From Melittangium boletus DSM 14713 (lineage in GTDB: Bacteria; Myxococcota; Myxococcia; Myxococcales; Myxococcaceae), in contig NZ_CP022163.1 in NCBI RefSeq assembly GCF_002305855.1, forward strand, positions 7,195,765 to 7,259,764: DNA of 64,000 bases, in the 5' to 3' direction. Positions 1-5,339 of this stretch are shown here, piece after piece (the first letter of the stretch is position 1; each line of letters starts with the position of its first letter). The notes under the pieces were generated by a model, which searched no databases, was not told the origin of the DNA, and was given only the letters and a program-made list of their open reading frames with translations. Position numbers and translations under genes: made by a program.

Positions 1-3000
1 ATCTTCGAGAGGACCTGCACCGCCGTGAGCGAGGTGCCTCCCAGCTCGAAGAAGTTGTCGTGCACGCCCACCTGCTCGAGGCCCAGCGCCTTCTGCCAGA
101 TGTCCACCAGCATCCGCTCGGTCTCGTCGCGCGGCGCCACGTAGGCCGTCCCCAGCGTCGGGCGCGGCTGCGAGGGCTTCACCGATGTCTTCTCGAACTC
201 CGCCAGCAGGTCCAACGTGCCGTCCTGGAAGCGCGAGCGCAGATCCCTCGTGGACACCACCACCTGCGGCAGCTTCTGCCGGAGGATTCGCCGGAAGGCC
301 TCCACGCCCTCCTCGGCCTGGATGACGTCCACTTGCGGCCCGCCAGGCTTCGCGCCGGAGGCCGCCACCGCGGATCCGGGCCCCTCGCCCAGCGCCTTCA
401 CCGTCTCCTCGCCCACCTGCCGCAGCGAGTAGTCGTCGACCTCCACCAGCACCTGGCCCCGCTCGTCCATCACCGTGACCTGGAAGGACGCCACCTCGTT
501 CTGGCCACTCGGCCCATAGCGCGTGTGGCAGTACAGCTTGCGCGGCATCGGCCCGTGAATCTTCAAGCCCTTGTAGGCGAAGGGCAGCCACGCCCCTCCG
601 CCCAGGCTGAACAGGCCAAAGCCCAGCGCCAGGTCCATCAGCGCCGGGTGCGCCTTGAGGCGGGGCAGATCGTCGAGGTGGTGATCCGCCAGCTCCAGCG
701 TCGCCATGGCCTCGCGGGGTCCGATCCGCAGCCGGCTCAGGCTCTTCCAGTGCGCACCGTGGGAGATGAGGGGCGAGAGCACCGGCACCTCCCGCCCATC
801 GCGCTCCTCTCCGCCGCAGCGCCGCGCCAGTTCCTCCACGTCGTGGCGCTCCGGCTGGCTCCCGCTCAACGCGACCGCGGTCCCCGTGACGTGATCCCTC
901 CACTCGCCCCACGCCGACGCCGCGCTCACCACCTTGAAGCGGTAGGCCTCTCCCTGGCGGGTGATCACGGTGCGGACTTCCTTCTCCTCGCCCTCCTTCA
1001 CCCACAACGGCGCCTGGATGTTCATCTCCTGGATGTCCACGCCGCTCAGCCCGGCGAAGTCCTCCAGCGCCGCGCGCACCATCTCGATGTAGCCCGTGCC
1101 CGGAAGCACCGCCTGGCCCCCCACCCGGTGCTCCTCCACCACCCAGTGCCGGGCGGTGCTGAAGTGCATGGCGTAGACGACCTGATCCTCCTGCCGGGAG
1201 ACGCAGCGGCCCAGCATGGGGTGCAGCTCGGGCGCGGAGACGGGGGCCTGCGCCGCCAGCTTGTTGATGACGCCCATCGCGAGGCCCATGGGCCACCCGT
1301 CCCAGTTGATGGAGACGGTGAAGGGGCCTCCCCGCGCGTTGCGCGCCTGGGCGTAGGCGTCCATGAAGGAGTTGGCCGCTCCGTAATCCACCTGCCCCGT
1401 CAGCCCCAACACGGAGCTGATGGAGGAGTAGAGCACCAAGAAGTCCAGTGGCTCGTGGGCCAGCACCTCCTCGAGCACCATCGTCCCGAGCACCTTGGGC
1501 GCCAGCACGTTCCTCGCCGAGTCGGCCGCCTTCACCTGCATCAGGCCGTCATGGAGCAGGCCCGCCGTGTGGATGACGCCATGGATCGCTCCGAAGCGCT
1601 CCTTCACCTCCCGCGTCACCTCCTTCATCCGCTCGAGGTCCGCCACATCGGCCTGGAGCACCATCACCTCCGCGCCCCGGGCCTCCAGCGACAGCACGGC
1701 CTCGATGCGCTGGCGCGTCTGATCTCCGGGCATGAGCTCGGCCAACCACTTCGTCCACGTGTCCCGCGGCGGCAACCCCGTGCGGCCCACCAGCGCCAGC
1801 CGCGCCCGGACGGTGCCCGCCAGGTGCTCGGCCACCACGAGCGAGAGCGCCCCGAGGCCTCCCGTGAGCAGGTAGACACCGCGCTCGCGCAGGCGCGGCT
1901 CCGGGGTGGCGGCTTCCAGCCGGATCGGCTCGTACGTCTGCTCCCAGCGGTGCGGACCGCGCAGCGCCACCGGGTTCGCCTCGTGCCCGGAGGTGACTTC
2001 CGCGAGGAGTTGCCGCGCCAGACGCGCCGCCTGGGGCGTGCCCCTCGCCGGTGTCACCACGTCGATGGGGCGGGCCTTGAGGTATGGGTACTCTTTCACC
2101 ATCACCTTGCCCACGCCCAGCACGAGGGCCTTCTCGGGGTGCAGGGACTCCTCGCCCGTCACCGCTTGCAGGTGGCTGGTGAGCACGTGCACGGGCAGCA
2201 CCTCGTTGGCGCTCGCCGGCCTCGGGCCGAGCGCCTGGACGAGGTGCAACAGGCTCTGGAAGCCCCGGCGCCAGGCCGTCTCGTAGCGCTCGCGCGGCGT
2301 GGTGGCGCTGTCCTCCCCCGTGACATTCCACAGGTGGGCGATGGCCGTGGGCCGCTGGTCGTGCTCGCGCAGGTGGCGCAGCAGGGCCTCGTGGTCCGCG
2401 GGGCTCTCCGGGTCGACGGTGAAGGCCGTGGGGCTCGGGTGGGTGAAGCCCTCGCCCGGCTTCACCGTGAGCACCTGGTGGCCCGCCTTCTCCAGCTCGA
2501 GCGCCAGCGCCTCGCCCACTCCCTGCTCGTCCTGGAAGAACAGCCACCTTCCGGGTTGGCCTCCCGAGGAGGTGGACTCGAGCAGCGGCGATTGCTTCCA
2601 GGTGGGCACGTAGAACCAGTCCGCGAGGTCCTGCTTCTTCCCCTTGGACTCCTCTGGCTTCACCGGGCTCTTGTCATGGGCGTTGCTCATGGATTTCTTC
2701 CAGAACTTCTTGTGCTCGAAGGGGTAGGAGGGAAGGGGGACGCGGCGGCGGCGCTCGTGGGAGTAGAAGCCCATCCAGTCGACGGGGACGCCCTCCATCC
2801 ACAGACGGCCGAGGGTGGACAGGAGGAAGGCGGAGTCGGACTGTTTCTCCTGGGGGTGGCGAGTGGAGGAGAAGACAGGGGTGGAGCGGGAGTGCTGCTT
2901 GGCCAGGGAGGAGAGGACCTGGCCGGGGCCCACCTCCAGCAGCACGCGCGAAGAGTCGGAGAGGAGGGTGCGCAGGCCCTCGGAGAAGCGCACGGTGTGG

Positions 3001-5339: not shown

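Follow-up and report, generated by a model that had tools for sequence, protein, structure and literature searches.

A dehydratase (DH) that directly follows the ketoreductase (KR) has been reported for hybrid lines of nonribosomal peptide synthetases (NRPS) and polyketide synthases (PKS). ClbB was published as ketosynthase (KS)-acyltransferase (AT)-KR-DH-enoylreductase (ER)-thiolation domain after an alanine module, with ordinary beta-carbon processing assigned to it (PMC5490422), and for RakEF attention was drawn to the KR-DH order in 2016 (PMC5073741). Among 220,645 DH sequences surveyed in 2026, 10,327 were in KR-DH order, 2,354 of them in hybrid PKS/NRPS, where seven clades were distinguished; products were known only for the serine-linked clade I, and it was noted that the non-serine clades may perform non-canonical chemistry (PMC13110770). 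Module 6 of BE-43547 has been reconstituted, with the KR acting first; mutagenesis found the His-Asp dyad of its DH to be essential for a double dehydration to the 4-amido-2,4-pentadienoate (APD) warhead, and the second histidine of APD-type DHs (HxxxGHGxxP) to be dispensable (bioRxiv 10.64898/2026.09.17.752105). Here we describe a PKS gene with this order from Melittangium boletus DSM 14713, encoded on the minus strand at the left edge of a 64,000-nucleotide stretch of contig NZ_CP022163.1 (positions 7,195,765 to 7,259,764; hereafter the window). With a probability that we put at roughly 70%, this gene, called the target below, encodes a single cis-AT module for chain extension, of the KR-DH didomain type found in hybrid NRPS/PKS lines such as those of ClbB and RakEF.

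An earlier reading, made from the sequence only, had described a KS-AT-KR-DH module with a carrier of the peptidyl carrier protein (PCP) type and an odd AT motif, and had considered KR before DH to be typical of polyunsaturated fatty acid (PUFA) synthases and enediyne-type iterative systems rather than of cis-AT modules. Its anatomy held, while its PUFA/enediyne inference did not. The target belongs to a cis-AT hybrid type that is in the minority but recognised, and what is particular to it is its partner, a cyclisation (Cy)-adenylation (A) module with a cysteine code, together with an atypical AT and a KS-AT block nearly identical to that of a paralogue.

Domain order and relatives of the module

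Computational translation of the minus strand gave a single stop-free frame from 3 to 5369, with an ATG at 5339 and an open reading frame (ORF) of 1779 codons that runs off the window edge at position 3. The GC content at third codon positions (GC3) was 0.93 over the whole ORF and matched that of the neighbouring genes, and since this value was uniform no sign of a frameshift was seen. Every peptide that had previously been translated by hand was recovered in this frame (LPSYPFEHKKFW, DWFYVPTW, YLLTGGLGALS, YSSISSVLGLTGQVDYGAANSF, HPMLG, HRVGGQAVLPGTGY, HPALMDLALGFG, YVAPRDETE, DNFFELGGTSL and VSSH). Pfam and NCBIfam models placed the KR before the DH (Table 1), as had been proposed, and detected neither a DH nor a carrier between the AT and the KR. 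A frameshift or misreading that would place the DH between AT and KR was ruled out by the continuous frame, by the GC3 of 0.93 and by residues 820 to 905, which are linker only. The target therefore departs from the canonical layout, KS-AT-DH-structural KR (psiKR)-KR-acyl carrier protein (ACP), both in having the KR first and in its PCP-like carrier.

The KS retains its active-site Cys181 (4797-4799) and the histidines of HGTGT and NIGH. The AT is integrated, as expected of a cis-AT module, and carries Ser630 (3450-3452) in GHSLGE with His729 and the Arg117 equivalent intact. For the KR, the NADPH motif TGGLGALS and the Lys, Ser, Tyr and Asn residues were all present, and from LHD at the LDD position it reads as B-type-like. 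The catalytic residues of the DH were located at His1404 (EHRVGGQAVLP, 1128-1130) and Asp1569 (HPALMD, 633-635), and the HPxLG and LPFxY motifs were intact in the family alignment. For the DH, AlphaFold2 modelling from a family alignment gave a structure (pLDDT 90.9, pTM 0.90) with double-hotdog secondary structure, and Foldseek matched it to modular-PKS DHs at template-modelling scores of 0.80-0.85 (Brevibacillus trans-AT DHs, PksJ DH1 and CurF/J/K). The DH is thus complete and predicted to be of double-hotdog fold, and the claim of a complete DH after the KR agrees with Pfam, the family alignment and the model.

The target DH was compared by phmmer to 1.84 billion representatives, giving 645 matches below 1e-30, and the best 150 were typed. 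A KR directly before the DH was found in 99 of these, at 33-40% identity, in the order KS-AT-psiKR-KR-DH-carrier protein (CP) or the same with an ER before the CP, often flanked by condensation (C)-A-CP. The rest were 20 fragments, 30 proteins of canonical order and 1 with both orders; the 30 were mostly AT-less (trans-AT-type) megasynthases, many of them matching through several DH copies. By match ranking the target DH groups with the post-KR DHs, and the canonical DHs of its own operon only reach 28% identity to it. A metagenome profile search from an 8-sequence alignment returned 80 loci, and the KR immediately preceded the matched DH in 74 of them, mostly in the setting A-CP, then KS-AT-KR-DH-CP, then C or KS. 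What follows the carrier was divided: about half of the relatives end 30-86 residues past the carrier match, and about half have 280-550 more residues in the same ORF. Six of these tails were read in the protein matches, four resembling C-type domains and two resembling thioesterases, and two further ones carried a sequence of luciferase-like monooxygenase type. No orthologous cluster was found elsewhere, the best full-coverage KR-DH-carrier relative being 40% identical, and a homology scan of genome contigs gave distant relatives only (32-44% identity).

Among the relatives, Micromonospora sp. NPDC049044 (locus L002, 1617-22057) has complete KS-AT-KR-DH-CP proteins of 1818 and 1814 residues with domain positions nearly as in the target. 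Beside the two divergent genes lie one for a LuxR-type regulator and one for a KS-AT-KR-CP protein, with no NRPS module in view. This locus may represent a non-hybrid use of the KR-DH module type.

These data bear directly on the PUFA-synthase or enediyne-type reading. KR-DH adjacency does occur in the enediyne PksE, once held to be the sole exception (PMC5073741; PMC9967187), and both PksE and PfaA share with the target a KR followed by a DH. In those iterative systems, however, the carrier or carriers lie between AT and KR, whereas no ACP was found there in the target and the only PP-binding match follows the DH. The PfaA model TIGR02813, whose cut-off is 1010 bits, scored 390 and matched KS-AT only. 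An AT-ACP-KR-DH layout was absent from the proteins of the 150 closest DHs, the structural neighbours of the DH model are modular-PKS DHs, and the gene belongs to a colinear operon, where it comes straight after the NRPS gene. An iterative system of this kind is hardly credible here. The generalisation behind it, that KR before DH is foreign to cis-AT modules, is contradicted by the 99 relatives, by ClbB, RakEF and BE-43547, and by the carrier position and the family models.

The cis-AT didomain assignment is also supported by direct comparison with ClbB, which was fetched from E. coli CFT073 and scanned. It gave C-A-CP-KS-AT-KR-DH-ER-CP, so that the target shares with it KS-AT-KR-DH directly after an NRPS module. 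The two were collinear over KR-DH (E 1e-25, 24% identity), and the carriers were 47% identical over 53 residues, that of ClbB being PCP-like as well (ELGATSL) and preceded by the same vestigial linker. ClbB differs in its ER between DH and carrier, its fusion to the NRPS module, its HAFH malonyl-type AT and its A-domain code, which reads DVFFTGGIFK against DLYNLSLIWK for the partner of the target. The target was rejected as a ClbB orthologue on the lack of an ER and the 24% identity over KR-DH. The likeness to module 6 of RakEF and BE-43547 (rakicidins, BE-43547 and microtermolides) was drawn from published descriptions and motifs. As in the target, a cis-AT KR-DH didomain is found there among NRPS modules, and the His-Asp dyad of the APD-type DHs, in HxxxGxxxxP and HPALxD, is present in the target as His1404 and Asp1569. 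The carrier of those systems hands on to a C domain, and their AT motif differs from that of the target.

Carrier, linker and acyltransferase

The carrier has the core DNFFELGGTSL, with Ser1770 at 30-32. When the last 130 residues were searched against the PDB, the matches were almost exclusively PCPs of NRPS (LgrA at 1.4e-22, PvdL, TycA and GrsA). Within the window, the alignment score was 154 with the PCP of the neighbouring NRPS (27 of 47 residues identical), as opposed to 19 and 25 with the ACPs of the two other PKS genes of the operon. The PCP assignment, including its dependence on a better alignment with PCPs than with ACPs, was thereby upheld, and an ordinary ACP was ruled out.

The alignments to LgrA, BmdB, McyA and ObiF1 already began in the A10 region of the adenylation domain, some 55 residues ahead of the PCP. 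There, FRRILRQKLPQVVVS of the target pairs with LRELLRRELPEYMIP of LgrA, and the A10 Lys motif is lost in the target. An element of about 50 residues, EGxxAFxRIL...LPQxVVSxRDL, was found to precede PCP-like carriers in KR-CP, KR-DH-CP and ER-CP modules alike; it is kept in the relatives P0004, P0016, P0023 and P0129 and in ClbB (L004), and in P0004 a full AMP-binding_C domain was still scored at this position. From these alignments the DH-to-carrier linker is deduced to be a vestige of an adenylation-domain C terminus, homologous to the A10 end. Since the element and the carrier are common to KR-DH-CP relatives, KS-AT-KR-CP relatives and ClbB, the PCP character of the carrier is a trait of the lineage, not one peculiar to the target gene.

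The nearest counterparts of the target KS, linker, AT, KR prefix and psiKR were the KS-AT-KR-carrier hybrids (NF045894, ZmaA of zwittermicin, and CurL-like proteins). These share the linker and PCP-like carrier of the target, lack a DH and stop at the beta-hydroxyl stage. NF045894 (modular type I PKS with a short-chain dehydrogenase/reductase) was also the best NCBIfam model for the target, at 1097 bits. The KR prefix follows the post-AT linker directly, exactly as in KS-AT-KR-carrier modules. Because the nearest psiKR/KR relatives are KS-AT-KR-CP modules and their linker and carrier align with those of the target, the layout is best read as a DH (DH-ER in ClbB) that would have been inserted into a KS-AT-KR-carrier module, between the KR and the linker-carrier unit.

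The AT carries VSSH (3153-3164) at the position of HAFH or YASH (FabD residues 198-201), as the sequence-only reading had pointed out. In an alignment of 142 ATs from the retrieved homologues with the three ATs of the window PKS genes, about 75% carried HAFH, and VSSH was seen beyond the target only in its paralogue P0005, a KS-AT-KR-CP synthase of M. boletus. A literature search on the VSSH motif found nothing. In FabD numbering the pocket residues are G11, L63, R117, V198, S199, S200, H201, N231 and H250. The near-invariant Gln11 and Gln63 are thus Gly and Leu in the target, a change found in only 9-10 of 140 relatives. The second-best PDB match of the AT was 5YDA (1.4e-69), whose residues 11 and 63 are Gly and Met; we take this to be the broadly selective splenocin SpnD-AT, although a literature search on the code 5YDA found nothing. 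The top match was ZmaA-AT (4QBU, 1.7e-72), which uses hydroxymalonyl-ACP and has the motif GAAH (PMC4207774). At the site for which the ZmaA paper gives the RXR/MXW motif of carrier recognition, the target has ECH, and the relatives vary there. From its pocket residues, the extender unit of the target is probably other than plain malonate.

The relation to P0005 is uneven along the gene. Identity was about 55% in the N-terminal half of the KS (before residue 345) and rose to 98-100% over the C-terminal half of the KS, the linker and the AT (residues 345-845; window ~2800-4300). It then fell to about 80% in the psiKR (residues about 940-1140) and to about 25-30% in the catalytic KR (residues about 1190-1340). 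The catalytic KR was in turn closer to the KRs from other modules of the KR-DH type, at 53-55% identity. Because the KS-AT identity so exceeds that of the KS N-terminal half and the KR, the mosaic indicates a recent gene conversion between the two PKS genes, and the VSSH AT would be held in common with P0005 through the conversion tract.

The upstream cysteine module and the proposed reaction

The orphan operon comprises two canonical PKS modules, a Cy-A(Cys)-PCP module and the target, which is its fourth gene. The NRPS gene ends 30 nucleotides before the target start codon, so that an NRPS module stands immediately upstream, as in the KR-DH class. Alignment to GrsA gave the A-domain code DLYNLSLIWK, corresponding to cysteine, and the control returned DAWTIAAICK. 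The Cy domain (7275-8603) contains FPLTDMQQAYWLGR, GDFAS (for GDFT), VFTS and QVWLDHQ, and lacks HHxxxDG. Its best PDB match was the Cy domain of EpoB (4.7e-105), followed by Irp2, BmdB and PchE. The Thr of FTS and the Asp of LDHQ, residues that have been implicated in cyclodehydration (PMC8807600), are both kept. The upstream module is therefore predicted to be cysteine-specific, cyclisation-competent and thiazoline-forming. No oxidase domain was found in it by Pfam, and a thiazole, should the product contain one, would have to arise in another way.

The pair resembles EpoB-EpoC (the EpoB Cy structure is 5T7Z), in which Cy-A(Cys)-PCP is likewise followed by a reducing and dehydrating PKS module and an alkene is placed on a sulfur heterocycle. 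EpoB has an oxidase domain and makes a thiazole, and EpoC is a canonical KS-AT-DH-KR-ACP module with an ACP-type carrier.

Such a partner was not met among the relatives. The upstream A domain was typed in 34 of the metagenome KR-DH loci. Most codes were Gly-like, eight read DAKDLGVVDK, and one each was of Ser, Thr, Val and Asp type; neither a Cys code nor a Cy domain was seen in any of the 34. A Cys code was also absent from the seven protein matches with a fused upstream A domain, two of the seven codes being unreliable. Within the sampled loci it is thus uncommon for a KR-DH module to be paired with a thiazoline-forming one.

For the target as a KR-DH extension module, the following course is proposed. 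The KS would take a 2-acyl-thiazoline-4-carbonyl chain from the upstream PCP, and the AT would load the atypical extender unit. After condensation, the B-type-like KR would reduce the beta-keto group and the DH would then remove water, in the normal chemical order of KR before DH, to leave a 3-(thiazolin-4-yl)-2-enoyl thioester on the carrier. The PCP-like carrier would pass this chain to a C or thioesterase domain beyond the window.

Several points weigh against this reading. The Cy domain has E-LMIA-D (ExxxxD) instead of the DxxxxD signature. The extender specificity of the AT is not fixed by its sequence features, and the order of the genes is assumed to be colinear with that of the reactions. 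The 3' end of the target gene and the remaining cluster lie beyond the window, and the literature search gave no product for the cluster. DH activity is likewise assumed, given that the FGPRW motif of the family reads HGAHW in the target, with Arg replaced by His and Pro by Ala at a site where Arg is kept in at least 90% of members.

The last substitution could also mean that the DH is inactive as a catalyst or has a structural role only, and that the module delivers a beta-hydroxy unit, and an operon in which module 2 shows decayed reductive domains (see below) would be consistent with such a loss. This is judged to be very unlikely, as His1404, Asp1569, HPxLG and LPFxY are all intact, the fold was predicted with high confidence, and both the uninterrupted ORF and its GC3 speak for selection that is still acting.

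The opposite possibility is that the DH does more than one dehydration, drawing on the gamma position that is acidified in the vinylogous amino-acid unit, as in rakicidin and BE-43547. Options for the second step would be epimerisation at C4 of the thiazoline, migration of the double bond to give a thiazole without an oxidase, or a vinylogous C-S elimination that opens the ring. The precedent is the KR-DH didomain of BE-43547, which installs a diene by double dehydration through its His-Asp dyad, and the non-canonical chemistry suspected in non-serine clades (PMC13110770), the missing oxidase domain upstream and the HGAHW motif all point the same way. The partner of the APD bimodule, however, is a serine-specific A domain, whereas that of the target is Cys in a Cy module; the second His of the APD-type DHs, five residues after the catalytic His, is Gln in the target (HRVGGQAVLP), though this His is dispensable; and ClbB, with the same order, was assigned ordinary beta-carbon processing. 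By analogy a multistep DH is conceivable and rather doubtful. The rhabdobranin paper, cited elsewhere for a link between KR-DH order and epimerisation, was set aside, as it states only that epimerisation takes place during PKS elongation and mentions no didomain.

A more specific proposal is that a post-KR DH acting on a cysteine-derived thiazoline with an unusual extender performs vinylogous chemistry so far undescribed for the class. It could end in a thiazole that bears a saturated side chain and is formed without an oxidase, in ring opening by C-S elimination to give a thioamido-diene electrophile, or in epimerisation at C4. This we regard as improbable; if true, an orphan pathway of a myxobacterium would contain a new route to a warhead or for processing a heterocycle.

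Operon borders and significance

The features of the target and its operon are collected in Table 1.

Table 1. Coordinates in the window of the target module, its domains and the other genes of the operon.
Feature	Residues	Position	Strand	Evidence
PKS module gene, KS-AT-psiKR-KR-DH-carrier, 3'-truncated by the window	1-1779	3..5339	-	single frame, Pfam and NCBIfam, GC3
KS	12-386	4182..5306	-	PF00109 4e-76, PF02801 3e-41
KS-AT linker	389-515	3795..4175	-	PF16197, PF22621 (CurL-like), PF22336
AT	535-819	2883..3737	-	PF00698 1.7e-51
Post-AT linker, includes LPSYPFEHKKFW	820-905	2625..2882	-	no Pfam domain
KR prefix (906-990) and structural psiKR (933-1096), starts ADWFYVPTW	906-1096	2052..2624	-	NF047870 PKS_KR_start 5.6e-26; PF21394 3.7e-14
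Catalytic KR	1154-1349	1293..1880	-	PF08659 5.4e-50
DH (PKS_DH_N 1373-1472, PS-DH 1526-1646)	1373-1646	402..1223	-	PF21089 1.9e-24, PF14765 3.4e-20
DH-to-carrier linker	1678-1726	162..308	-	HMMER alignment to LgrA 1672-1770
PCP-type carrier, cut in helix 2 (PP-binding from 1744)	1727-1779	3..161	-	PF00550
NRPS module: TubC-type docking, Cy, A (Cys), PCP		5370..8834	-	Pfam
PKS module 2, KS-AT(YASH)-DH-KR-ACP		8813..14338	-	Pfam, motifs
PKS module 1, first operon gene, KS-AT(VASH)-DH-KR-ACP		14335..19815	-	Pfam

The gene of module 1 follows a 130-nucleotide intergenic region and has the KS at its very start (MEPIAIIGMGCRFPG, with the active-site Cys). Neither a loading module nor a docking domain was found in this gene, and initiation would therefore be encoded elsewhere, probably beyond the left window edge. 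In module 2, the KR reads GNHAAAN with its catalytic Tyr replaced by His and LDD missing, and the DH has APALLD and MAPPS for HPALLD and YGP. Module 2 looks reductively dead, so that a beta-keto group may be left on the chain that reaches the Cy module.

A plus-strand ORF of 1700 residues lies antisense to the target gene (60-5162), and similar shadow ORFs lie over the remaining synthase genes. Such ORFs are to be expected at high GC content and are artefacts, not genes.

Beyond the operon, 19945-27546 (minus strand) encodes an 1833-residue NACHT-domain protein beside a 695-residue metallophosphatase, with a GC content of 0.66-0.69 against about 0.70-0.75 in the neighbours. The NACHT protein had no PADLOC match, and the metallophosphatase matched the PADLOC 'effector endonuclease' model weakly (5.5e-17). 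From their domains the two may be a NOD-like receptor (NLR)-like defence or signalling pair bordering the cluster. The remainder (27784-64000) is housekeeping, with a glycosyltransferase, phoU, a pst permease, two response regulators, a histidine kinase and yceD-plsX-fabH-fabD-fabF, as well as serine hydroxymethyltransferase, riboflavin genes, a cytochrome P450 and cheA/cheR. The right cluster boundary lies at about 19.9 kb, and as housekeeping genes fill 27 to 64 kb, the cluster continues beyond the left window edge.

To a specialist the finding is in itself unsurprising. The link between the KR-DH didomain and a function is recent, and the one experimentally tested case makes the electrophilic APD warhead. 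The vestigial adenylation linker before the PCP-like carrier and the shared KS-AT block bear on the origin of such modules and on recombination points for engineering. The target is a defined example from a cultivable organism, with a predicted thiazoline-forming cysteine partner and an unusual AT pocket, and it is a sensible system in which to ask whether having KR before DH entails special chemistry or is just an alternative build of a reducing hybrid module.

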